Source of the DNA: Mobula hypostoma
Taxonomy: Eukaryota
DNA: 64,000 nt
Assembly (NCBI RefSeq): GCF_963921235.1
Contig: NC_086108.1
Span: 41,418,001 to 41,482,000 of the forward strand
Direction: 5' to 3'
This document shows, piece after piece, positions 9,826 to 62,350 of this stretch. The notes beneath the pieces are model-generated. The model saw only the letters and a program-made list of their open reading frames with translations. It was not told the DNA's origin and did no database searches. Both the position numbers and the translations under genes were made by a program. Numbering within the stretch: the stretch's first letter is position 1; each line of letters opens with the position of its first letter.

Positions 9826-10740
9826 CATAAGACCATAAGACATAGGAGCAGAATTAGGCCACTCGGCCCATCGAGTCTGGGCTGCCATTCCATCACAGCT
9901 AATTTATTATTCCTCTAAGAACATAGAAACATAGAAAACCTACAGCACAATACAGGGCCTTTGGCCCACAAAGCTGTGCCAAACACGTCCTTACCTTAGG
10001 ACTACCTAGGCTTACCCATAGCCCTCTATTTTTCTAAGCTCCATGTACCCATCCAGGAGTCTCTTAAAAGTCCCTATTGTTTCTGCCTCCACCGTTACCG
10101 GCAGCCCATTCCACGCACTCACCACTCTCTGCGTAAAAAAATCACCCCTGACATCTCCTCTGTACCTACTTCCAAGCACCTTAAAACTATGCCCTCTCGT
10201 GCTAGCCACTTCAGCCCTAGGAAAAAGTCTCTGACTATCCACACGATTAACGCCTCCCATTATCTTGTACTCTTCCATCAGGTCACCTCTCATCCTCCGT
10301 TGCTCCAAGGAGAAAAGGCCGAGTTCACTCAACCTTTTCTCATAAAGCATGCTCCTCAATCCAGGCAACATCCTTGTAAATCTCTTCTGCACCCCTTCTA
10401 TGGTTTCCACGTCCTTCCTGTAGTGAGGCGACCAGAATTGAGCACAGTACTCCAAGTGGGGTCTGACTAGGGTCCTATATAGCTGCAACATTAACTCTCG
10501 GCTCCTAAACTCAATCCCACGGTTGACGAAGACCAATACACCGTATGCCTTCTTAACCACAGAGTCAACCTGCGTAACAGCTTTGAGTGTTTCAACCTCA
10601 TTCTCCTGCCCTCTCCCAGTAATCTTTGATGCCCTGCTTAACTAAGAACCTATCAAGCTCTGCTTTAAATATACTCAATAAGTTGGTCTCTACAGCCGTC
10701 TCCGGTAATGAATTCCACCAATTCACCACCTTCTGGCTAA
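9826..10740 (-). mobile_element. Older CR1 3' end split into 9826-9916 and 10591-10740 by a younger CR1
   Basis: CATAAGAC tail repeats and a GGCC..GGCCC 3' hairpin region. The 3' UTR/ORF end resumes at 10591 (GAATTCCCACAATTCACCACC) and resembles 49847-50060. Confidence 0.7.
9917..10590 (-). mobile_element. Young 5'-truncated CR1 with an uninterrupted ORF2 C-terminus (10012-10560)
   Basis: 182-aa open frame with LYRTLVRPHLEYCAQFWSP, RRMRGDL, TRGH and FFTQRVVSAWNGLP; (CTATGTTT)n tail. Confidence 0.92.
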
Positions 10741-11018
10741 TTCAGAATCACTGTAGGAGAGACTAATGCCCCTGTGACATGAGTTACCTGAAATGAAACA
10801 TCTTTCTGTCTGGGTCATTAGAAAAGCAACCACTTCTAACATGGCTATTAGGAATGAATATTTTTTAACATGGATCATCAGAGAAGCTCTCTCTCTTCAA
10901 GAAGCAAGTTGTTTTCAAAAGGTATTTCAAAATATTCCAGATATATTTGAGTAAATTCAAGCCTTTAATCATGAAAAATGGATGTCAATACTGATCCCAC
11001 AAGTGAGGTTACATATTT

Positions 11019-11148
11019 GTCCTGAAGAAGAGTCCCGGCCCGGAAAGTGTTTATTCACTTCCATAGATGCTGCCTGATCTGCTGAATTCCTCCAACATTT
11101 TGTGTGTGGTGCCTTGGATTTCCAGCATATGCAGAATTTCTTGTGTTT
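11019..11148 (+). mobile_element. Solo Penelope-like terminal (pLTR) remnant with a damaged hammerhead motif
   Basis: CTGAAGA(11022-11028)..GAAA, then CCATAGATGCTGCCTGATCTGCTGAATTCCTCCAACATTTTGTGTGTG, homologous to 62214-62350. Confidence 0.75.
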
Positions 11149-13009
11149 ATTATATATTTGATGCTGCTTTCCCTGTTTTCTAACCTGATTAGTTTTGCAG
11201 CAAGACATAACTTTGCATCAGCATCTTGTTGCCACTGCTCCATCAGTTCGGAAATGAAGAAATTGGCTTGCTCTCCTGACCTGAACCAACTTGCACAAAA
11301 GTGGAGCTTTTGATGTATGATGTCTAAAAATGCTACTTGATAATGCAAATCCACGAATACTATAATTTAGCAGAGGCTGCTCAGGAATCTTACACCCAGT
11401 TAAGGGCCCGCATTAAAGCATACCGTACTACTGGACTCAATTCATGATGCAACAATATGGCTTGCTAGTAGAATGGACACTGAGGGACTGAGCAGAGGTT
11501 GTGGGCCATTGAAGGCAATTTAAATCAGGAGCTTCTCAGTGCTTCTTCTGTAATCTCCAAGCAGAAATTGTATAATTGTGGCTGGAATTGATACAGAAGG
11601 CAGGCTTTGATTTGGACAAAGTAAACAATTGTTTCTCAAGCTACTTTCTCTATTGCTTATCTTCCCTTGCCCAACCTTGAAAATCTTGTCAATGATGAAC
11701 AGGTAATTGACTGTACTTGGAACAATTGCTCATGACCAAAACTTTAGCAGCACCTTATCCTGCATTATTTACATTTTAGACATCAGAGCCATTATTCTGC
11801 AGCATAAGCCTGGACAGCTAATTATCAATTAAACACAGGGGTTGGTATTACACAGGGCTGTACAACAGGTACGTGTGTCAATGTCCACTGTGTCATCTCT
11901 ACTGATACTTTCTAGATACAAGTTTATGAACACACAAATGAAGATTATCCTCAATTCCATTGGTTGAGCTTAAAATCTGAGGAACTCTCCAAATGCATTG
12001 CTGAGGGAGTTGTGTATCTTTGGATGTGCCATCTTTCATCTGTGATGGTTCATGTTTCATAGACAGCTGACATAGATTCCATGGGACTGATATGTTATTG
12101 ATCGAGGAGTTCTTTCTGACATCCAGCATATCATTTGCCTTCAAACAATAGTGATGTATATATTATTTGTTCATTCCCATGTTGCTATGGATTGAATTTG
12201 CCACATACAATTTGGATGGGACATCTCTGACATTGCAAGTGAAGTGATTACACTCCAAATGTACATTAGCTGTAATGCTTTTTGGAATGTCCTGAGGCTG
12301 AGAAACATACTATAGAAGCCCAAGTAGTCCTTCAGTTTTCTGAGCACTCTGACAGCTGTGGATGTAACAGGATGATTAAGTAAAAACCGCCTTGCTAACT
12401 ATAACCAGCTTCATACCAGCCAAAAGAGATTTGTATCAAATACTAGGAAAACAATGTTGGGCTCTTACAGTCCATATACCTGAAAATGAGTGGCAATGCA
12501 TGCCCATCAGATGTGTGTATATTGACATCCTGTTAAGCAAAGGTTTAATTTTCAAAATTGTTGACATGTTCTTTCTTGGCTTCACCGCTCTCTATATCTT
12601 CAGACTTCTTTGTCCACAATTCTTTGAAATGTTTGTGCTAAACTTTTGATCAGCTTCAATAATTAAACATTTGTGGCTGTGTCTTCAGATGCCAAGGTCC
12701 TAAGCCTTTCCTAAGTCCTTCCTTAATCCTTTCTGTCTTTCCACCTCCTTAAGGATCTTCTCAACTCACCTCTGTAGCTATCATTTATCACAAAATCTTG
12801 CATAACTCGATGTCAAATCTCACTCCTTTTGGTGCAACGTAGAACATTATACAACAGTAAAATAAATAGGAGTGTCAATCTAGAATTGAGCAAGGCTCAA
12901 TCTCTACTCCACTTGCCAAAAGTATCTGGATAAGGATTGAACCCTGTACTTTTGGCTCAGAGGCTTCTGCTACTGACCCAAACACTTGCTCCAATTTAAT
13001 TTTGTGCCT

Positions 13010-13089
13010 AGCACAGATTAGCAGGAAGTCCATTAATTTGAACTAGTAATGACTAGTTCAAACTAATGGACTTCCTGCTAATCTGTGCT
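13010..13089. repeat. Near-perfect inverted repeat (38-bp arms, 4-nt loop, 1 mismatch)
   Basis: AGCACAGATTAGCAGGAAGTCCATTAATTTGAACTAGT-AATG-ACTAGTTCAAACTAATGGACTTCCTGCTAATCTGTGCT. Confidence 0.97.
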
Positions 13090-14349
13090 TGCTGAAGTGT
13101 GAATTTGCTATGCATTTTAGTCACTCAAAACTGAAAGCAGATGAAGGCACCTGATGGGGTACAAACCAACCCATATCTACCGTTTCCTCGTTTGTTATAC
13201 TAAAATAATTTTTTTAATTTGATAGTTTCGAAGCCATTCTTGGATAGGAGTCATTGTCAATATATGTGCAAGAGTTTTACAGTAAAGTTTGTAAATCAGC
13301 ATATGTAATAGGCTGTGTGTTTTGTTTAGATAGTGTAAATCATTAACCAAAGATATGGGAAGTTTTGTCTCTGCCTCCTGAGCATTAACTTCTCTCTGGG
13401 TACATCACAAAAATCAAAATCTTGCAGGAAAGTCACCACCAAAAACAGAATTAGCTTGGGAAACCTTTCAATAAAATTATTGAAATAAAAATTTCAGAGA
13501 ATTACATCAGTGGCATGCATTCTTTGCTAATTAATATCTCCTTCGAGTTGTCCCTATTCAAGAAAAGATAACTGACCTAAAAGCTTGCTCCATTTCACAT
13601 TCCACAAAAGCTGCCTGATATGCTGACAGTTCTTAGATATTCTGTTTTATTTCTTATTTCCAGCAGCCACAGTATTTTGGCTTTTGTAAGAGGAGGTTGA
13701 GTTTTATTAGATTTCACAAATAGAAGCAAAGCTATGAAGTCTAATATCCATTCTGAGAAACAGCATAAGCCTCTCCGAGATATAGGAAGTTACAGTCCAG
13801 ACTCTGTGGTCACAAGTATGGAAAACAAATTGAATCCACACCTTGCCAGCACAGGAGGAGTGCAACTACTGACCAATACTGGCACAGAAAATAAATTTTC
13901 ACGGAGCCATCACCATGTGTAAAGATGAGAAAAGAGGAAGAGAAACCTCGTTCTACCAATTATAATTGTGACCATTACAAAACTCAACGGTTGTGCAATC
14001 AATTAATGGAATGTTTGTAAATACCCATGCTGATGAAAGTAGTCATTCTCCCTTATTGATAACCAATATTTTACGTTCATCCAAAAGCACTTCCACAATT
14101 CTCAAACCGTTAAGTAATGATCCTGATAGTCAAAGATAATGCAAAATAGCCTTAATAGAGATTTGGATAAAAGTTCTAGGATGGCACTCCAGATCAGCAC
14201 TGAGCCTTGCCTTTCAGATGGCAAAACAGAGGGCAAAATCAGTTTGACTGAAAAAGAGCATGTAATATTTTGAAGAAAAACAGTGTGGCTATCTCAATGT
14301 CCTGCTCAATAGTTTTCTCACTTTCAACATCTAAAGCAGATTATCTGAT

Positions 14350-14475
14350 CTGATGAAGGGTCTTGGCCTGAAATATCAACTCTTTATTCCCTTCCATGGA
14401 TGCTGTCTGACCTGAAATGAGTTCTTCCAGCATTTTGAGTGCATTACCTTGGATTTCTAGCATCTACAAAAGCTC
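14350..14475 (+). mobile_element. Solo Penelope-like pLTR remnant with hammerhead core boxes
   Basis: CTGATGA-AGGGTCTTGGCCT-GAAA-TATC followed by CCATGGATGCTGTCTGACCTG..CCAGCATTTT. Confidence 0.75.
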
Positions 14476-15558
14476 TTGAATTTATCAGATCTTTATGTCG
14501 CTTCTGTTTGTGGTATCTGATGGAGCATGGTGTTTTGCAGAATTTCCATGGTGTAACAGTAAAAATAATCCAAAATGAATTGCTTGATTTTCCAGAACAA
14601 ATTTTCACTGACGTGTTCATTTTAAAAAGTAGCATTTTACAAAAATGAACATTTGTTTTTTTTATTTTTACAGCTTTAGAACTTTATCTAGAAAACAAGC
14701 TCATTACTTAGAACTTCCTGTTACTAGCTGAAATAGTTATCATTTAAGGCTCATGGTATCGAGATTGGGCCTAATCCATTTAGAGAAGTTTGATGTTTAG
14801 GGTTCATATTTAGAAACTTCACCAATTTTGAGTTAACACTTTGTGCACTGAAGAAGAATTGCAGCTTTGAAGTCCAAATTCTTTTTCCGTTAATGTTCAT
14901 TACCAGTGTTGTGATGAATGGCCTGACTTTGCAAAGTTTTAATTTAGCCCAAGTCCCATATATCATATCAATTCACCTATGGTATCTGTTGTACTATAGT
15001 GATTAGGAACAGCAAAATGCAGCAAATGACGTTTGTGTAGTGCTTCTCAGAACCACAGAAAATCCAAATGAAATTTGCAGCTATTTTGAAGAAATTTCAC
15101 CATGACTGCTTTCTAGGCAGGCTGTCAAATTTTAGGCTGACTTGTTTCCACTACAGAATTTTGAGTGTGAAAGAATACTGTGAGTGATTTATTTTAACAC
15201 TGAGTGACCATTGCACACTGGCTACTGCATGGTCTTGACTGAGTGAGGTCTTGATCCAATGTCAAGGAGGTCACAGATAACTAAACACCATGCTGTGCTC
15301 AAAAGACTAGGCACAGACACACATACACTGACTTCATGTGTACACCCAGCACATATTCTAACCATATACAGCTGCACTCTTACTATACATGCTTTATTGG
15401 GTAAACACATACACACACACAATTTTCTCAACTACGCCCTCTTTCTCAACTGCACTCCCAACTTTAATACCCGCCTTCAGTCTCCTCTTCCTTAAAGCTC
15501 CCTCCCATTGTCATCTCCCTGTCAACCCCTTCCCTCTTTACTCACCCCTCTCTCTGAC

Positions 15559-24650: not shown

Positions 24651-24789
24651 AGAACATTGGTTTTGAATTATTTTACACGTAGGTGTAATTATTTTACATT
24701 ATAGGTGTGGGGAATTAGGACTCAGTTTATATCAGAATGAGAAGGGCAGGGAGGAAACAAAATGTGGTGCTGAATAGGCAGAAGTGACA

Positions 24790-25003
24790 CAAGAGAGACT
24801 ACAGATGTTGGAAACCTTGAGCAACACTTACAAAATGGTGGAAGTACAGCAGCTACGTAGGGCAATAAACAGTCAACTCTTCAGTCTGAGACCCATCATC
24901 AGGACTCAATGAAGATCAGTGATGAAGAGCCTCGGTTGAAATGCCAGCAGTTCATTTCCTTCCATAGATGCTGTCTGACCTGCTGAATACCTCCAACATT
25001 TTA
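24790..25003. mobile_element. Divergent (inverted) pair of Penelope-like pLTR remnants
   Basis: Minus copy 24790-24906 (AGTC-CTGATGA-TGGGTCTCAGACT-GAAG-AGTT-GACT); plus copy 24917-25003 (GTGATGAAGAGCCTCGGTTGAAATG..TCCATAGATGCTGTCTGACCTGCTGAA). Confidence 0.7.
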
Positions 25004-40631: not shown

Positions 40632-40735
40632 TAGCAACACACAATCTGCTGGAAGAGCAGAGCAGGTCAAGCAGCATTTGTAGGAGAAAAGAAACTGCCA
40701 ACTTTAGGGGCCAAAACTTTGCATCAGGACTGAGA
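40632..40735 (-). mobile_element. Decayed Penelope-like pLTR remnant
   Basis: AGCAACACACAATCTGCTGGAAGAG..AGCAGGTCAAGCAGCAT..CATCAGGACT is the reverse complement of the pLTR family. Confidence 0.6.
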
Positions 40736-41929
40736 GTGGAGAGGTTGAGATGACCAGTTTAGAGAGCAGAAACATTTTCATTGTTTAGTTGAGTTTACTA
40801 TGGCATGATACCTAGTGGGGTTAGTTTTTATGCTGTGCAAGATCCAAGCCCAAGTTCTGCAGAATGGAACTTTTAATAACTGTGCCCTTAAATCCCCAAA
40901 GGTAGCAGGCTTTATAAGGTCAATCACAAAAAGATGACCACATTGAAGACTAGAAATTTTATGCTGACTTGCAATTGCACAACTAGCAAATATTGATTAC
41001 TGAAAAATATTTGGAGGCTTGCATCACTAAAGTTGCTTACAAGGGGTATTCCATCAGGTCAGCTGAAAACAGTTAAAGCCATTTTGTTTTGATGATGAAT
41101 AGCCCTCCCTTGACAGATTGTTCTTTTCTACCTAAAGCTGCAATTTGTACCTTCCTTTAGGCCACAACCTATATGATTTTCTTTTAGGATGACAGATTTA
41201 TTGCTATCTTTTGGAGGAAAAAATAACGAATGAAAATCTTGGTTAGAATACAGAATTAAAATATTAAAGCACAAATCCAGCAGTATTCAATTTTCAGTTG
41301 TGCTTTTTACACCTACAATGCATTATATTTTGTGCCAAATAATATAAATTGTGTGTATTTATTTCTCTAATATTTGGATCCAATCACTTCTGACACTTTA
41401 AACTCCTAATCAACTCCTTATTTTCATATCTCATGATTTTCTGAAACTTCTCTTTTGAAATTGAACCAGCCTGAGCTATGTGGTGAGCTGCCGCATTATT
41501 CAGGCCAGTATACACCTTACTAGTGACACTAAACCACTTATGGAGCTAGGAACCTGAAATAATAACTATGACCCCTCTGGCTCAAGACTTTTGCAGCATA
41601 GTGATGGCTTTTATTTGATCCTATAACCCACAACAGTCAGATACCCATTCCTTTTAAAAGAAATGACTAACTTTAAAAAAACTACAGAGCTGGATGTTCT
41701 CAAGTTTAATGCAATTTCAGTACATTTTCAGTGCTTTACACTAACCCCACACATGCCATCCATTTAAGCTACGGAGAAATAACACTGTTCCTTCATCTTT
41801 CTTGCAAATGCCATACAGCAGGTATATCTAATAATTTTTGCAGAGAAGGTTATGCATTTGATAGTAGACCAAAAGATAGCTGTCACTTGTTGTGTTCAAT
41901 TAATCAGGCAAATGAAGACCTCCACAACT

Positions 41930-46679: not shown

Positions 46680-47280
46680 ATGGAGCTCTACTGTATCTGG
46701 TGCTCCCATCTACATCAGTGAAACCTGATATAACGAGGAGACCACTTTATCAAGCGCCTTTGGTCTCTCCGCAACAGGCAGGATTAATTGGTGGTCAGCA
46801 TTTTAATTCTACTCTCCATTCCCATTTCAACGTTTTGGTCCACGGTTGCATCTACTGCCACAATAAGGTCACACTCAGGTTAGAGGAGCAACAGCTCATG
46901 TTCCATCAGAGTGGCCTCCAACCTGATAGAATGAACATTGATTTCTCTAACTTCCGGTAACTTCTCTCCCCTCCCCCCTCCCCCCGCCACCTACTCTCTT
47001 TTTCCATTTCTTATTCTGGCTCCCCTCTCACCCCTTCTCTTCTCCTCCTTCTGGTGCCCTTCCTCCCACTCGTTCTCCCACGGTCTACTCTCATCTCCTA
47101 TCAGATCCCTTCTTCATCCCTTTACCTTTACCACCTATCACCTCCCAGCTTCACACTTTATCCCGCCCTCCCCTACCAACCCACCCTCCCCTTCACCTGT
47201 CTTCATTTATCATCTGCACAGCCTGTACTCCTTCTCCTCTACCCACCTTTTTATTCTGGCTTCATCCCCCTTTCTTTCCA
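46680..47280 (+). mobile_element. Penelope-like element fragment (GIY-YIG region and pyrimidine-rich 3' UTR), truncated just before the hammerhead motif
   Basis: HFNSTLHSH..LRLEEQQLMFHQSGLQPDRMNIDFSNFR; collinear with 61660-62214. Confidence 0.8.
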
Positions 47281-47558: not shown

Positions 47559-49716
47559 AGAACAATAGAAACATAGAAACATAGAAAATAGGTGCAGGAG
47601 TTGGCCATTTGGCCCTTCGAGCCTGCACCACCATTCAGTATGGTCATGGCTGATCATCCAACTCAGAACCCTGCACCAGCCTTCCCTCCATACCCCCTCA
47701 TCCCTTTAGCCACAAGGGCCATATCTAACTCCCTCTTAAATAGAGCCAATGAACCGGCCTCAACTGTTTCCTGTGGCAGAGAATTCCACAGATTCACCAC
47801 TCTCTGTGTGAAGAAGTTTTTCCTAATCTCGGTCCTAAAAGGCTTCCGCTTTATCCTCAAACTGTGACCCCTCGTTCTGGACTTCCCCAACATCGGGAAC
47901 AATCTTCCTGCATCTAGCCTGTCCAATCCCTTTAGGATTTTATACGTTTCAATCAGATCCCCCCTCAATCTTCTAAATTCCAACGAGTTTAAGCCTAGTT
48001 TATCCAGAACTAGTCCAGAATCTAAAGAGTTTTGAAAAATTATCACTAACGCATCTACTGTTTCTTGGGCTACTTCCTTAAGCTCTCTGGGATGCAGACC
48101 ATCTGGCCCTGGGGATTTATCTGCCTTTAATCCCTTCAATTTATCTAACACCGCTTCCCTACTAACATGTATTTCACTCAGTTCCTCCATCTTACTGGAC
48201 CCTCTGTCCCCCTACTATTTCCGGAAGATTATTTATGTCCTCCTTAGTGAAGACAGAACTAAAGTAATTATTCAATTGGTCTGCCATGTCCTTGCTCCCC
48301 ATAATCAATTCACCTGTTTCTGTCTGTAGGGGACCTACATTTGTCTTAACCAATCTTTTTCTTTTCACATATCTATAAAAGCTTTTACAGTCAGTTTTTA
48401 TGTTCCCTGCCAGTTTTCTCTCATAATCTTTTTTCCCCTTCCTAATTAAGCCCTTTGTCCTCCTCTGCTGAACTCTGAATTTCTCCCAGTCCTCAGGTGA
48501 GCCACTTTCTCTGGCTAATTTGTATGCCTCTTCTTTGGAATTGATACTATCCCTAATTTCCCTTGTCAGCCACGGGTGCACTACCTTCCTTGATTTATTC
48601 TTTTGCCAAACTGGGATGAACAATTGTTGTAGTTCATCCATGCGATCTTTAAATGCTTGCCATTGCATATCCACCGTCAACCCTTTAAGTGTCATTTGCC
48701 AGTCTATCTTAGCTAATTCACATCTCATACCTTCAAAGTTACCCTTCTTTAAGTTCGGAACCTTTGTTTCTGAATTAACTATGTCACTCTCCATCTTAAT
48801 GAAGAATTCCACCATATTATGGTCACTCTTACCCAAGGGGCCTCTCACGACAAGATTGCTAATTTAACTCTTCCTCATTGCTCAATACCCAATCTAGAAT
48901 AGCCTGCTCTCTAGTTGGTTCCTCGACATGTTGGTTCAAAAAACCATCCCGCATACATTCCAAGAAATCCTCTTCCTCAGCACCCTTACCAATTTGGTTC
49001 ACCCAATCTACATATAGATTGAAGTCACCCATTATAACTGCTGTTCCTTTATTGCACACATTTCTAATTTCCTGTTTAATACTATCCCCAACCTCACTAC
49101 TACTGTTAGGTGGCGTGTACACAACTCCCACCAGCGGTTTCTGCCCCTTAGTGTTATGCAGCTCTACCCATATCGATTCCACATCTTCCCAGCTTATGTC
49201 CTTCCTTTCTATTGCGTTAATCTCCTCTCTAACCAGCAACGCCATCCCACCTCCTTTTCTTTCATGTCTATCCCTCCTGAATATTGAATATCCCTGAATG
49301 TTGAGCTCCCATCCTTGGTCACCCTGGAGCCATATCTCTGTGACCCCAACTATATCATATTCATTAATAACAATCTGCACTTTTAATTCATCCACCTTGT
49401 TACGAATGCTCCTTGCATTGACACACAAAGCCTTCAGGCGCGCTTTTACGACTCTCTTAGCCCTTACACAATTATGTTGAAAAGTGGCCCTTTTTGCTGC
49501 TTGCACTTGATTTGTCGGCCTGCCACTTTTACTTTTCACCTTACTACTTTTTGCTTCTACCCTCATTTTACACCCCTCTGTCTCTCTGCACTGGTTCCCA
49601 TCCCCCTGTTGTGAACTAACCTCCTCTCGCCTAGCCTCTTTAATTTGATTCCCACCCCCCAACCATTCTAGTTTAAAGTCACCTCAGTAGACCTCGCTAA
49701 CCTCCCTGCCAGGATA
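47559..49716 (-). mobile_element. Young CR1 LINE, 5'-truncated, with endonuclease and C-terminus but the RT core deleted
   Basis: ORFs 48859-49662 (LCVNARSIRNK, VGVTEIWL, IMGDFN), 48192-48848 (SDHNMV) and 47663-48190 (KSPGPDG..SLDSGLV fused to LDKLGLNSLEFRRLRGDLIE); (CTATGTTT)n tail. Confidence 0.93.
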
Positions 49717-50849: not shown

Positions 50850-53250
50850 CCATTGAAAATTTATAGTGCAGAGGACAACCAATTAGCTCATAGGGTCAGT
50901 ACCTGTCAGAGATTTGGTAACCAATGGAATTGCAGTTCCCAGCCTTGGTCCACAGACCTCTGAGTTCACATCCAGGTTTCTGCTTGCCTTACCCTTTTTA
51001 AGCAGAGTTCAAGATATCTATCATCCTCTGAGTGGAAGACTTTCTTGACTTCTCTCTAATCCTATTACCATTTTTCAGTCTATGATCCACTGGTTTAGAA
51101 ACCCTCAGTTGAAAGGAATCCCTTCTTACTCTTGAATCTGTATAAGTCTTCATAATGTTGTAAAATTGAAAAGGATTTTCCCCTCAGACTCCGTAGCTCC
51201 ATAGAAAGCAACATTTAGCTTTTCCTTTCTTTTCCTTTAACTGCAGTTTTCCAGTCCTGCTAACATTTTAATTCAGCCTTGCTGCACCCTCACCAGTGCA
51301 ATCACATTTGGTAACCAGAATGATAAAAATTGGCCTAACTATACTTTACACCACAATGGCATAACCTCCTAATCTTATGTTCTGTGCTTCAACAACTAAT
51401 GGAAAACATTCCTTTTGTCTCCGTTACCACCTTATTGACTTGGCCTGCAACATTTAATAATCTGTCAGCATCTCTGTTCCTCCACAACATTCAATTTCCT
51501 GATATCTATTGTGTATTCACTTGACTTTTTCTACAGCATTACCTCATAGTTCTTTGATTAAATTACATGTCATCTTTCTGCTCAAATAACCAAATCATCT
51601 GTATCTTCTGTGGTCCAAAACTTTCATCATCACTGTCAACCAAGCAGTTTCTGAATCATCACCAAACATTTTTCGAAGTGCCTTTTATGTATTGAGGTCT
51701 GAATTCTTAGTGAGCATTTCATGAAGTAAGATACTCCAGTCTTTACCCCGTTGTACCCCATTGATAATAGTCACAAATATGCCTAGCAGCAATTAACATA
51801 TGCATCCTGCCATTGAAACAATTTTGAATCTAATTTGCAATTATCCCCTAGATCTCATGTGCTTTTACCTTTTTGTCTTCAATGTGTGAACTTATCAAAG
51901 TCTTGGCAGAATTCACGTAGACTACAAGACCGCATCAAGTGCCATACCTTCATCAACGATCAATGCCACTGCCATAGAAATCGCAAACAACCTTGATGGA
52001 CATGACCAGCACTTAAATAAAAGCATCCATGCTGTGAAATGGTTTCTTATTTATTAAGATTTATGGTTCTTTGAAATAGATTACAATAATTTGCCCACCA
52101 CCAAAGACAGATCAGAATCAAGTTTATTATCATTGGCTCATGTCATGAAATTTGTTAACTTAGCAGCAGCAGTTCAATGCAATACATAGTATAGAAGAAA
52201 GAATAATAATAAACCAATCAATTACAGTATATGTATATTGAATAGATTAAAAATCGTGCAAAAAACAGAAATAATATATATTAAAAAAGTGAGGTAGTGT
52301 TCAAGCATTCAATGTCCATTTAGGAATCAGATGGCAGAGGAGAAGAAGCTGTTCCTGAATCACTGAGTGCGAGCCTTCAGGCTTCTGTATCTCCTGCCTG
52401 ATGGTAATAGTGAGAAAAAGGCACGCCCTGGGTGCTAGGATTGTTAATAGTCGTTATCTTGCCTTCTTTATAGCTGCATCGATATGTTGGGACCAGGTTA
52501 AGTTCTCAGAGATCTTGACACCCAGGAACTTGAAACTGCTTGTCTCTCCAGTTCTAATCCCTCTATGAGGATGGGTATGCGTTCCTTCATCTTACCCTTC
52601 CTGAAGTCCACAATCAGCTCTTTCGTCTTACTGACGCTGAGTGCCAGGTTGTTGCTGCAACACCACGCCACTAGTTGGTACATCCTGCTCCTGTACGCCC
52701 TCTCATCTCTATCTGAAATTCTACTGACAATGGTTGTATCGTCAGCAAATTTATAGATGGCATTTGAAGTATGCTTAGCCACACAGTCATGGATATGGAA
52801 AGAGTAGAGCAGTGGGCAAAGCACACACCCCTGAGGTGCTCCAGTGTTGATCGTCAGCGAGGAGGAGATGTTATCACCAATCCGCACAGATTCTGGATCC
52901 GCCAATCTCTCCTGTAGTTATTTAATGCATCTTTTCCTTCCTTTTGAATAAACATTAGCAGTGTTTCAATCCCCTGGTACCACTTATACAGCAAAGGAGG
53001 ATTAAAAACTACAGTTAGAGCCACAGCATTTTTCTTCCTTGTTTTTTATATACATTGCAATATACTCCATCTGGGTCTGGTAATTTATTCATTTCTAAAG
53101 AAGGTAAACCTCTTAATATTTCTACTTTTACAACATTTACCTTGTCCAGTCTTTCACAGTTATCCAACCTAACAGCAATTTTCTGTGCTGCGCTGTGACA
53201 ACCAGTAAAAGTGTTCATCAGGAATTTTACCTACATCCATTTCCACACAC
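50850..53250 (-). mobile_element. Highly decayed CR1 interrupted by a Rex1-like insertion
   Basis: Minus-strand remnants of VYVNSAKTLISSH-type, FGDDSE and KLPDPDGVY motifs. Boundaries approximate. Confidence 0.5.
52110..52905 (-). mobile_element. Rex1/Babar-like LINE: 3' end (52110-52440) plus RT segment (52450-52905), with an internal deletion between them
   Basis: NTGAPQGCVLCPLLYSF..IYKFADDTTIV..WCCSNNLALSVSKTKELIVDFRK; AGAATC tail. Confidence 0.88.
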
Positions 53251-55384: not shown

Positions 55385-55690
55385 CCTGCCATCACCTTCC
55401 TCTGGTGCAACAGCCCCTCTTCCCTTTCTCTCATGGTCCAATTTCCTCTCCTATCAGATTCCTTCTTCTTCAGCTGTTTACCTCTTCCAGCTATCACCTT
55501 CTCACTTCATACACCCCTCTTTCACAGCCACCTGCCCCCTCACCTGGTTTCACGTATCACCTACCAGGTTCTACTGCTTCCCCCTTTCTTTCCAGTCCTG
55601 ATAAAAGGTCTCTTCCTTAAACCTTGAAATTTTATTTCCCTCCATAGAGGGTGCCTGACTTGCTGAGTTACTCCAGCATTTTCTATGTGC
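55385..55690 (+). mobile_element. Penelope-like 3' UTR/pLTR fragment with a decayed hammerhead motif
   Basis: Collinear with 62020-62310; CAGTC-CTGATAA-AAGGTCTC at 55593-55612. Confidence 0.75.
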
Positions 55691-58600
55691 TTTGCACAAT
55701 GAAATTATTTTGTTTTCTTAATGTCACCATTCTGCTACAAACATTTTCATACCTCTTTTTCAAAAGAGTATTGGAACCTTTGGTGGCCAAGGAGAGTGAT
55801 TTGTCAGCCTAGACCACTGTTTGATTTTGAACACAGACTCTGGAACAGAAATGAACACCTCTATCTATATGTAATCACGTACATATACAAAACCTTCACT
55901 CCTGATGTAGCACTGATTAGACAGGCAATTTGTATACTATTTGTCAACTCAAAAGCTGCTCGCCTTCATGATTTAATCCTCAATTTGATGTGCCAAGTGA
56001 AAATTGTCAAGTAGATTGTGAAATACTATCATTATTTTTATATTCCATTGATGTAAGTGAACATAAATCCAGTGAGATGATACCAGGTTTGTTGAAAACT
56101 CAGATGAAGATCTTAAGCCATATCTGATATAGACAGCCATGGTTACCCTCACTGAAGGGAGGGTATACCGTAGCCATCTACTCTTCAGACACTAGATCAC
56201 TTCCCTGTTTATTCTCCAGGGTGAGTTTAGCTGCCAAAACCTGCTATTTGACTATCTGAGCGCTGGATTCCCCCCACGAATAAGGAGGAGATACTTCCAG
56301 CTAACAAAGTAGTTTTAACAAAGTTCATTTACGTTTAGTGATACATGCTTAAATCCAGACAAATTTTTTCTAAAATACATTTGAACACACAGAATTTTTT
56401 ATCTTTAAAACAGATTTCCAAATTACAAACAATTTCTTAACACAAACGATATCCAAAACCCAGGTACAATTCCTATAAGCTAAAAAGGCGTATCAACAAG
56501 TTGCAGACAAAGAAATCATCCATCACAGTTATCAAAGGCAGAGGAATGTATTCTGGTCACCCCATCTTTTTGTCATTCTTCTTGCTCTTCTGTAACCATT
56601 CCTCACAAGTCTGACTACTCTCTAATATTTTTACTCTTTTTTTGCCACTTGGGTGATTTCAACACATGTGATACATTTTCATATACCTTTTCACACAGGT
56701 GGTCTAAAGCTTCTGAGGGCAGAGTTCCCAGATATCCATAATGCTATAAAGCTGACTCTGAGCACACAAGCCTTCCAACTATTTATACATGGGCTACTCG
56801 AGGTTCTAAATGATTGTATCAATCTGGTCTGCAAGCTTCCTTGAACTAATAACTTTGGCAGCATTAGCTGGTTTGAAACAGGCCAATTAGTATAACCCAA
56901 CTGTCTTTCACTGCAACTAGCCCCATGCTGTGAACCAGCATCCTGTGCTCTATAGACAGTGCTGTTTGTTTGCAAAGCTATCCTTTTAATTTCATACTGG
57001 TTATTGCTTGCCATTTACAATAAGAACTGAAGATTGGCTCCCGTTTATGACAAGCAGCTGAACAAAAATATTTGTTGGAAGTTCAACTTACTCAAAAAGA
57101 ACTCTTTGATCTCTACAAACTGAGCTTGGCAAAAAAGGGTCTGTGGCCCTGGACAGTGAATGTCCATCACACAAGGTACAGCACTGCACAAATGTTAATT
57201 CTATTAAGGAATGTATTATTACAGCCGAGAAACTTGTATCTTATTTTCTATCTGCAGCTCCAATATGTATGAAACAACAGGTTGTTTTCTTTATGTCCTT
57301 TAACCTCTGCTTCCAAAAAAAATACACATTTATAAGGAGTGGAATATACAAGTAGGGTAACTATTTTTCATAAGACTGTATCAGGCTGAAAAAAATTACC
57401 CAAATCAAAACTTTTTTATACAATTATAAAAAAAAAGTGCATAAAGCAGTAATATCACTGAAAATAATGTTACATTGATAGTCTCTGGGCTATGCTAATG
57501 AACCATTGTTATTGTGTAACAATGCTGGCATTTCCCTTGAGATGTTAAGTATGCTGTAAGTTCTGTCAGTATTATCTGGTTAAATATTAAGGCTCAATTC
57601 CAATCAACAATTGCTGCACAATTAAGTCTGGGTGAGAATATGGGGTCTTTTGTAGGTATTCGAAATGTAGGTGCACTTTGTTTGCCATTTATTTTCATTT
57701 TGTGGGCACAGATCTACAAATGAGGCCTTTCGAACTTGAGCAGCAGCATCTTGTAACCTCTTCCTTGTTAATCTGATTATCGTGGCATGTCATCTCATAG
57801 TTTGTGTGCAACATGCAGACGGAAGACTGTCAGCCATTTATAAAAGGGCAAAGGTGGCTGCTTTTACATTGCTTGGCTCTAGATGATAAACTTCAGCAGA
57901 GTAACTGACCTGCTGAAGAGGGGTTGTTCAAATCTCTTTGATTGCCATTGCTAAGTGACTTTTTTCTCAGCCTGAGCCCCACTCCAAACGAAGATCATTT
58001 AGCCAGTTTTATTTTATTAACAAGGGACAGGTTTACAATCCCAAGAGAGTTAAAATTTGATGTCTGGGTCCTCTCTCAATTGGATATTGTCACCTGGTAA
58101 CTATACTGCAGGAATCCTGTTATTGTTAAAGCTGTAAATCATTGCACTGTAAGTGTTAAGGTTTATTAATTATTTCCAATGGTGGCATTTATTATTTCAG
58201 CATAAAGTATATTTGTAGTAAAGAATGTTTGTGAGTGCCAGGTCCTGTTGCTGTTTTAGTACTTTTAGTGCAAACATGGCTGACAGGTTAATGGTTAAAC
58301 ATACTATTTGCACTGCCATTAAATCAACTAGAGTGGCACAATAGTAATGGCTGATGAAAGTACAGGCTTATGAAGAAAGGACAGTTAAGTACTGGACCTT
58401 GCTTTAATGTGCCCATCAAAAGCACACTGTACAACTGACCAAGCGCATTTGATTAGTTAAAAATATTGAATCTGCATAAGAGTCATAGGATATGAATTCC
58501 ACCCAAACTTATTTCCTTTATGTAGACAACAAAAAGAGCACAACTCACAAATCAAACAAATGTATACTAGGATTATAATTACTATGTCAAGTTGGAACCC

Positions 58601-61060: not shown

Positions 61061-61160
61061 AGATACATCAAAGTTGCTGGTGAACGCAGCAGGCCAAGCA
61101 GCATCTATAGGAAGAGGCGCAGTCGACGTTTCAGGCCGAGACCCTTCGTCAGGACTAGGT
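61061..61160 (-). mobile_element. Well-preserved Penelope-like pLTR segment in inverted orientation at the 5' side of the element at 61200-62350
   Basis: Reverse complement is homologous to 62214-62310, with CpGs retained. Confidence 0.8.
61120..61157 (-). ncRNA. Minimal type I hammerhead ribozyme motif with intact catalytic core (Penelope-associated)
   Basis: Minus strand UAGUC-CUGACGA-AGGGUCUCGGCCU-GAAA-CGUC^GACUG. Stem I is UAGUC/GACUG, both core boxes are intact, stem II is short, stem III is the palindrome ACGU and the cleavage triplet is GUC. Confidence 0.8.
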
Positions 61161-61199: not shown

Positions 61200-62350
61200 C
61201 TTCTCAGGAGGGTTTTCTGTGACATCAGAGATGTCTTCCTTCTTCATAGAATGGGGTTTCCCTTCCTCCAGTATTGATGCTGCCCTCACCCACATCTCCT
61301 CCATTTCCCGAATATCCACGCTCACAACACTCTCCAGCCACTGTAATAGTGGTAGAGTTCCTCTTGTCCTTATCTACCACCTCATCAGCCTCTGCATCCA
61401 ACACAACGTTCTCCACAACTTCTGCCATCTCTAAAGGGAACCTACCACTAAACATATCTTTACACCCCCACCCCTCTGCTTTCTACAGGGATTACTCCCT
61501 CCATGATTCCCTTGTTCATTCATACCTCTCCACAGATCTCCCTCCCGGCACTTATCCCTGCAAGTGGCCTAACTACTACACCCGCCCCTACACCTCTTCC
61601 TCACCTCCGTTCAAGGCTCCAAACAGCCCTTCCAGATGAGGCAACACTTCGTCTACGAATCTGCTGGGGTCATCTATTCTGTCCAGTGCTCCCAATGCGG
61701 CCTCCTCTATATTGGTGAGATCCATCTTAAATTGGGGGACGGCTTCATCGAGTACCTCTGCTCCATCCGCCAAAAGCGGAACATCCCGGTGGCCAAATAT
61801 TTTAATTCCGATTCCCGCTTCCATGCCAACATTCAGTCCATGGCCTCCTTTTGTGCCAAGATGAGGTCACCCTCAGTTTGGAGAAGCAACACCTTATATT
61901 CCTTCTGGATAGCTTCCAACCTGATAGCATGAATATCAATTTCTCCTTCGAAAATGTTCAAAAATGTTTTTCCTTCCCCCTCCCCTCTTCTTCTATTCCC
62001 CACTCTGGCCTTTTACCTCTTCTCACCTACCTATCACCTCCTCCTTGGTCCCCTCCTCCTTCCCTTTCTCCTATGGTCCACTTTCCTCTCCTATCGATTC
62101 CTTCCTCTCCAGCCCTTTACCTTTCCCACCCACCTGCTTTCACCTATCACCTACTAGCTAGCATCCTTCCCCTCTCCCCACCTTTTTATTCCCACTTCTT
62201 CCCCCTTCCTTTCCAGTCCTGTTAAAGGGTCTCGGGCCGAAATGTCGACTGTTTATTCATTTCCATATATGCTGCCTGACCTGCTGAGTTCCTCCAGCAT
62301 TTTGTGTGTGATGCTCTGGATTTCTAGCATCTGCGACTTTTTCATGTTTA
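61200..62350 (+). mobile_element. Penelope-like element 3' portion (linker, GIY-YIG endonuclease, 3' UTR, pLTR)
   Basis: RVPLVLIYH; GTYPCKWPNYYTRPY; GVIYSVQCSQCGLLYIGE..LGDGFIEYL (GIY-YIG); LEKQHLIFLLDSFQPDSMNINFS; terminal CAGTC-CTGTTAA..GAAA-TGTC-GACTG at 62214-62251. Confidence 0.88.

Follow-up and report, generated by a model that had tools for sequence, protein, structure and literature searches.

The closest described systems are the minimal hammerheads (min-HHRs) of metazoan Penelope-like elements (PLEs). These loopless motifs have been described in PLE pLTRs, and mostly as solo motifs from truncated PLEs; the monomer was inactive and the dimer showed low activity (Cervera and De la Pena, 2014, PMC4209133). 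The same source describes an unpaired A before stem II for this class and calls a G-C pair at 10.1-11.1 highly conserved. A tandem layout may help dimer formation (PMC6765202). In a PLE of Anolis, the element's protein is required for cleavage, RT initiates internally on the RNA at a point downstream of the hammerhead, and the template is mainly uncut RNA (Frangieh et al., 2024, PMC11167929). The role of PLE hammerheads has been called unclear in a study that uses a CX2-5CxxC linker to mark the Neptune and Nematis clades (PMC8557442). Penelope is listed in whale shark (PMC8455134), and hammerhead retrozymes have been reported in one chondrichthyan genome (bioRxiv 10.64898/2026.07.22.740005). 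The accessible parts of the literature on hammerheads and Penelope in sharks, skates and chondrichthyans do not describe the motif of the family studied here, and the accessible part of PMC6466107 holds nothing specific to it; Repbase or the supplements of PMC4209133 and of the bioRxiv preprint may hold the family.

The window that we analysed is a 64-kb stretch of contig NC_086108.1 of Mobula hypostoma. Its minus strand reads, from 61157 to 61120, as a complete minimal type I hammerhead of 38 nt, and this is the commonest variant of the young subfamily discussed below. We number from the C of CUGA at 61152 (+1), which places the stem I strands at -5 to -1 and +29 to +33. The 5' strand of stem I, UAGUC (61153-61157), is also the 5' end of the insertion, as identity to the full-length element begins here. 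It is followed by the core box CUGACGA (61146-61152) and by a segment (61133-61145) consisting of an extra unpaired A at 61145, between positions 9 and 10.1, and stem II, whose strands GGGU (61144-61141) and GCCU (61136-61133) enclose a CUCG loop. GAA (61132-61130), ACGU (61129-61126) and C17 (61125) follow at 61125-61132 with the architecture given in PMC4209133, and the 3' strand of stem I, GACUG (61120-61124), completes the motif. The core boxes CUGANGA and GAAA are present together with the NUH triplet, and the predicted cut, GUC^G, lies between 61125 and 61124. Stem I has 5 bp including one U-G, and the corresponding pair is C-G in most old copies. Helix III is loopless and consists of the self-complementary ACGU, palindromic at 15.2-16.2. 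An earlier sequence-only reading of the window had given the minus-strand sequence with its intact core boxes, the 5-bp stem I with one G-U, the position of the cut and the loopless, self-complementary helix III, and our check of the sequence agrees with it on each of these.

That reading had left two options for stem II, GGGU/GCCU and AGG/CCU, and only the first is favoured by the other copies. Position 11.1 is C in most old copies. As this C is the older state and removes the A-U alternative, stem II appears to be GGGU/GCCY after an unpaired A, and in the window copy it is best read from the sequence as GGGU/GCCU after the extra A. Here the pair 10.1-11.1 is G-U, as in 17 of 24 young copies, whereas old copies have G-C in 32 and G-U in 18 of 78. 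The fold z-score of the motif is only -1.24. Thus, stability alone is no evidence for the motif.

A Penelope-like origin had been proposed, and it is borne out by a 95-bp identity to the end of an element encoding RT and GIY-YIG. We used the protein of a neighbouring copy to find loci with long ORFs, and 20 of the 150 listed loci were fetched. One of these, L077, holds an intact PLE of ~3.5 kb, in which two identical motifs lie on either side of a 1,039-codon open frame. The single ORF carries RT followed by a C-terminal GIY-YIG domain (DKG at 448, YIDD at 685, GVIY at 942, YIG at 956), and the matches to RVT_1 (E 0.0047) and GIY-YIG (E 0.0011) are both below the Pfam gathering score. A CX4CX2C linker, CKRNKCYTC at 906, lies between RT and endonuclease. 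Judged by this one linker motif, not by a tree, the element is probably an EN+ PLE of the Neptune/Nematis type. Its closest named protein relatives are from cartilaginous fish (65-76% identity; Hypanus 76%, Chiloscyllium 72%, Rhincodon 72%), as the suggestion of a chondrichthyan family had implied, and further best relatives are mostly at 47-57%.

Tandem and inverted arrangements, 5' truncation and an optional tail all occur in this PLE family. Among the 20 long-ORF loci, three same-strand motifs spaced by ~3.5 kb are present in L061 and in L062, and two in each of L065, L068 and L077. The arrays at L061 (1332-8383) and L062 (1487-8550) are head-to-tail full-length PLEs with three identical intact hammerheads each. 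The 3' ends of copies past the cut site form two clusters among the matches listed, at ~+92-106 and ~+129-134.

The motif is extremely abundant. In the 3.48-Gb genome, 49,246 sites match a 33-nt family pattern exactly, against 0 for the reversed control, which shows that the motif is not due to chance. A genome-wide descriptor search had been suggested by the sequence-only reading; a core-only descriptor gave 102,839 matches against 1,243 for the control. Rfam misses this very abundant motif: its search returned no hammerhead match at E<=5 in the window. Within the 64 kb, the copy at 61120-61157 is indeed the only intact one of its family, as had been stated: only one of six loose-descriptor matches has GAAAC-GUH and stem I, and the seven other tail matches are decayed copies. 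It is not special in the genome, however, being one of at least 49,246 exact matches, and 18 of the 24 young copies in an unbiased sample are also intact. The exact 38-mer accounts for 62 of 141 descriptor matches across all fetched loci, a set enriched by the choice of loci. The PLE family makes up ~4.8% of the 800-kb sample described next (38,393 aligned bases, overlaps not removed).

To follow conservation we used 800 kb at fixed positions (L081-L160) and the window, from which 102 copies were collected by their tail alone. These comprised 24 young copies and an old bin of 78, in which the window copy was placed because of its short tail. Intact copies made up 18 of the 24 young but 3 of the 78 in the old bin. 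When the majority letters of the young and old subfamilies were compared column by column over the 102 copies, they differed at 3 of 38 motif positions, 6 of 11 positions of the adjacent downstream spacer and 8 of 48 tail positions. The three motif differences (young versus old) are N7, the terminal pair of stem I (U-G versus C-G) and the pair 10.1-11.1 (G-U versus G-C, so that the young subfamily has drifted away from the conserved G-C). All three are structure-neutral, and every core position has an identical majority letter in both subfamilies. The motif is better conserved than the spacer beside it. The tail comes close to the motif in this respect, and protein binding may thus account for some of the conservation.

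The region from +45 to +130 after the motif in L077 is conserved between young and old copies almost like the motif itself. Complementary words within this tail could pair into a stem-loop, which would be a candidate for protein binding or for the start of RT.

Covariation of the stems had also been proposed as a check. We found no two-sided compensatory changes between the young and old subfamilies, and scattered ones occur only in single decayed copies. The stems are supported by conservation and by one-sided wobble changes only. Some variants change loop II and keep stem II.

Based on these results, we consider it highly probable that the motif is a min-HHR in the pLTR of a young, abundant PLE and that the copy in the window is a 95-base truncated fragment, likely inert. 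We infer catalysis by the motif, and propose the following working. In a transcript of a tandem element (pLTR-ORF-pLTR), the ACGU palindromes of two motifs would anneal and give both a common helix III of 4 bp. With their stem I strands swapped between them, the paired motifs would then be cleaved at GUC^G. A need for a partner in trans had been predicted, and this holds only for the solo fragment; it does not hold for tandem full-length elements, which carry 2-3 motifs per unit, so that the natural partner can be in cis. Cutting is probably slow and aided by the element's protein, since the predictions favour an inactive rod fold over the active one. In the predicted monomer minimum, which is inactive, GACG is paired to CGUC and the core is masked (-11.0 versus -7.0 kcal/mol for the open fold), and for the dimer the active fold is at -11.5 versus -30.3 kcal/mol for the co-fold minimum. 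These nearest-neighbour energies ignore Mg2+, tertiary contacts and protein. The predicted inactive minima of monomer and dimer would be in line with the weak, protein-assisted cleavage that has been published. Finally, almost every genomic copy extends across the cut site, and uncut RNA therefore appears to be the main template. The fragment in the window may stem from an uncut RNA on which RT set out in the tail, downstream of the motif, and halted 95 bases later.

The same folds can be read in another way. The motif of the young subfamily may no longer be a ribozyme, and may be kept as an RNA structure or protein site or simply be carried along and drifting. The G-U at 10.1-11.1, the U-G in stem I and the C at N7, which favours the GACG/CGUC misfold, would then be signs of drift, and the inactivity of the predicted minimum-energy folds and the copying of nearly all copies from uncut RNA would be expected. 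Published work points the same way: hammerhead mutations left insertion in vitro unaffected and none of the reads started at the cut site (PMC11167929), 8 of 9 dimer constructs from Xenopus failed to cleave (bioRxiv 2026.07.22.740005), and Naiad PLEs proliferate without canonical hammerheads (PMC8557442). However, the majority letters of the core are the same in young and old copies while the free position N7 and the spacer have changed, as selection on hammerhead chemistry would predict. We therefore think that loss of ribozyme function is unlikely, although it deserves to be taken seriously.

If the hammerhead cuts in vivo and cleaved RNA is sometimes copied, insertions should start at +29. 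We counted copies by the start of their match, with the three upstream bases all mismatched, and obtained 205 at +24, 206 at +26, 96 at +27, 93 at +28, 581 at +29, 214 at +30, 194 at +31 and 186 at +32. The excess at +29 is ~3-fold (581 versus ~200), is one base wide and lies at the scissile bond. A coarse start histogram, judged by eye on the 100 matches listed of 1,573, had shown no peak. Junction context was then read at 180 loci from seven sites. Among 40 joints at +29, 14 were inverted with at least 3 bases of microhomology, 14 were inverted with less, 6 were forward, and 6 were joined to host or other sequence; at the other sites, inverted joints with at least 3 bases of microhomology were found in 0-4 of 20-30. 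Of the 14 low-homology joints at +29, five allow a GAC-mediated reading as well. The word GAC(T) is found again in the inverted arm, owing to the self-complementarity of stem I. When joints with this inverted end and identical GAC microhomology were counted as a matched control, there were 20 at the cut site versus 47 at +3; the control is imperfect in that ends are more frequent near +3. Microhomology matched in this way explains the peak without cleavage, and we rejected the +29 peak as a trace of cleavage.

Two further counts bear on the same question. Low-homology inverted joints are estimated from small samples at ~200 at +29 (~130 without the five GAC-readable joints) versus 40-144 elsewhere. 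Perfect hairpins centred on the cut site number 75, versus 2 and 7 at two other 6-bp palindromes, with 19, 13 and 11 copies at risk in 800 kb. The hairpin excess is not decisive because GTCGAC itself amounts to 6 bases of microhomology, and hairpins arise at nearby 4-bp palindromes too. It is thus doubtful that the hammerhead cuts in the germ line and that ~1% of insertions, copied from cleaved RNA, left the +29 excess; even if the whole peak were cleavage, only ~1% of copies would be concerned. If it were true, this ~100,000-copy genome would be a genomic record of PLE hammerhead cleavage in vivo.

Other rearrangements were seen at these joints. In L264, L278, L280, L288, L289, L320 and L323 the core has been excised between repeated GAC/GTC words and the stem I strands are joined, an excision that was likely microhomology-mediated. 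L256, L257 and L258, three separate loci, have an identical sequence at the inverted joint, in which a single additional base precedes the +29 start, although their inverted arms differ in subfamily.

The copy in the window lies in a 5'-truncated young PLE insertion of 95 bp on the minus strand (61063-61157), which comprises the hammerhead and part of the tail and is 100% identical over its 95 bp to the 3' pLTR/tail of L077. It lacks an ORF and an upstream pLTR, and its start coincides exactly with the 5' edge of stem I. The 95/95 identity indicates that the fragment is very recent as well as extremely truncated at its 5' end. Starts this short are not unusual: of 44 copies, 5 begin no more than 6 bases upstream of CUGA, and 30 extend more than 40 bases. 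A target-site duplication at 61063-61157 is of at most 3 bases, which is not distinguishable from chance, and no tandem repeat covers the motif site. Neither the ORF listing nor contig joints, both weak tests, found a host exon in the window. The 95-bp copy is likely inert at this spot. The view that it serves the host, being transcribed and cut in trans with another copy so as to affect host RNA, could appeal to its intact parts and to the ~100,000 core-intact motifs that might act as partners. We regard it as very improbable: the fragment is identical to the active family and so very recent, with no sign of host selection; the search for host exons, though weak, identified none in the window; and bimolecular pairing through 4 bp and exchanged stem I strands would compete with more stable inactive folds.

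On the plus strand beside the fragment lies an old PLE fragment (61213-61946), a broken C-terminal ORF remnant with GIY-YIG that matches the L077 protein by tblastn (49% and 71% identity, E 3e-58) with stops and a frameshift. Its decayed hammerhead (62214-62251, plus strand) has both core regions mutated and is 75% identical to the young copy, and its tail runs to ~62339 (tail match 62265-62339). With a motif only 75% alike and a broken frame, this neighbour is an older, separate insertion in the opposite orientation. The idea of one composite insertion, in which the neighbour at 61213-62339 would have the 95-bp piece as its inverted 5' pLTR, draws on their opposite orientation, their spacing of ~55 bp, the many inverted copies seen in the family and the inverted 5' copies typical of PLEs (PMC8557442), but is largely refuted by the difference in age and scarcely credible, because the two motifs are only 75% alike, one piece is 100% identical to an intact young element whereas the other, with its broken ORF, is from an old subfamily, and ~40 bp of unrelated DNA separate them.

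The window holds other repeats. A typical inverted twin insertion lies at 24787-25002, where two old pLTRs from the PLE family of the motif, both with decayed hammerheads, stand back to back and inverted. Further old, decayed pLTR/tail copies lie at 11016-11149, 14347-14480, 40632-40746 and 55573-55696, and an old GIY-YIG remnant with 3' UTR lies at 46772-47280. A near-perfect inverted repeat with arms of ~40-50 bp (12993-13105) is probably a small inverted-repeat transposon rather than a microRNA; Rfam microRNA models matched it far below their gathering scores. Open frames on the minus strand at 10012-10641, 47663-49683 and 52498-52917 resemble LINE reverse transcriptase/endonuclease fragments, which may be CR1/L2-like.

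The single copy matters little. The family, in turn, is a convenient system for asking what PLE hammerheads do. Its youth, its intact tandems and its ~100,000 core-intact motifs give high power for tests of cleavage, of protein dependence and of junction statistics.

How does this family compare with known systems? Animal non-LTR retrozymes carry a type I hammerhead derived from PLE pLTRs, as here, and form short tandem arrays with one hammerhead per unit, whereas the window copy is a solo fragment without a tandem repeat (bioRxiv 10.64898/2026.07.22.740005). The Neptune/Nematis EN+ PLEs, as described in PMC8557442, share with our family the single ORF with RT followed by GIY-YIG, the CX2-5CxxC linker, partial tandems, inverted 5'-truncated partners and an optional tail of 30-40 bp. 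Poseidon PAc of Anolis carolinensis (PMC11167929) has its hammerhead where the pLTR meets the ORF, as here, and in both families copies end downstream of the motif at two clusters ~35 nt apart and appear to be made from uncut RNA. The CX4CX2C linker of our family is of the Neptune/Nematis rather than the Penelope/Poseidon type; protein-assisted cleavage has been shown for PAc and is proposed for our family.

The closest likeness is to the min-HHRs of metazoan PLE pLTRs in PMC4209133, with the same core, the loopless helix III, type I and the pLTR location, so that the assignment to a known class of minimal, dimer-type hammerheads was correct. The accessible part of that source does not name cartilaginous fish as hosts. 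Helix II is 4 bp here and 7-8 bp in the Schistosoma families, the youngest subfamily here has G-U at 10.1-11.1 in place of the conserved G-C, and ~100,000 descriptor matches here compare with ~4,000 in coelacanth and ~9,000 in Xenopus, counts obtained with different descriptors. The copy in the window is an ordinary member of this class described in 2014, in a dead fragment.
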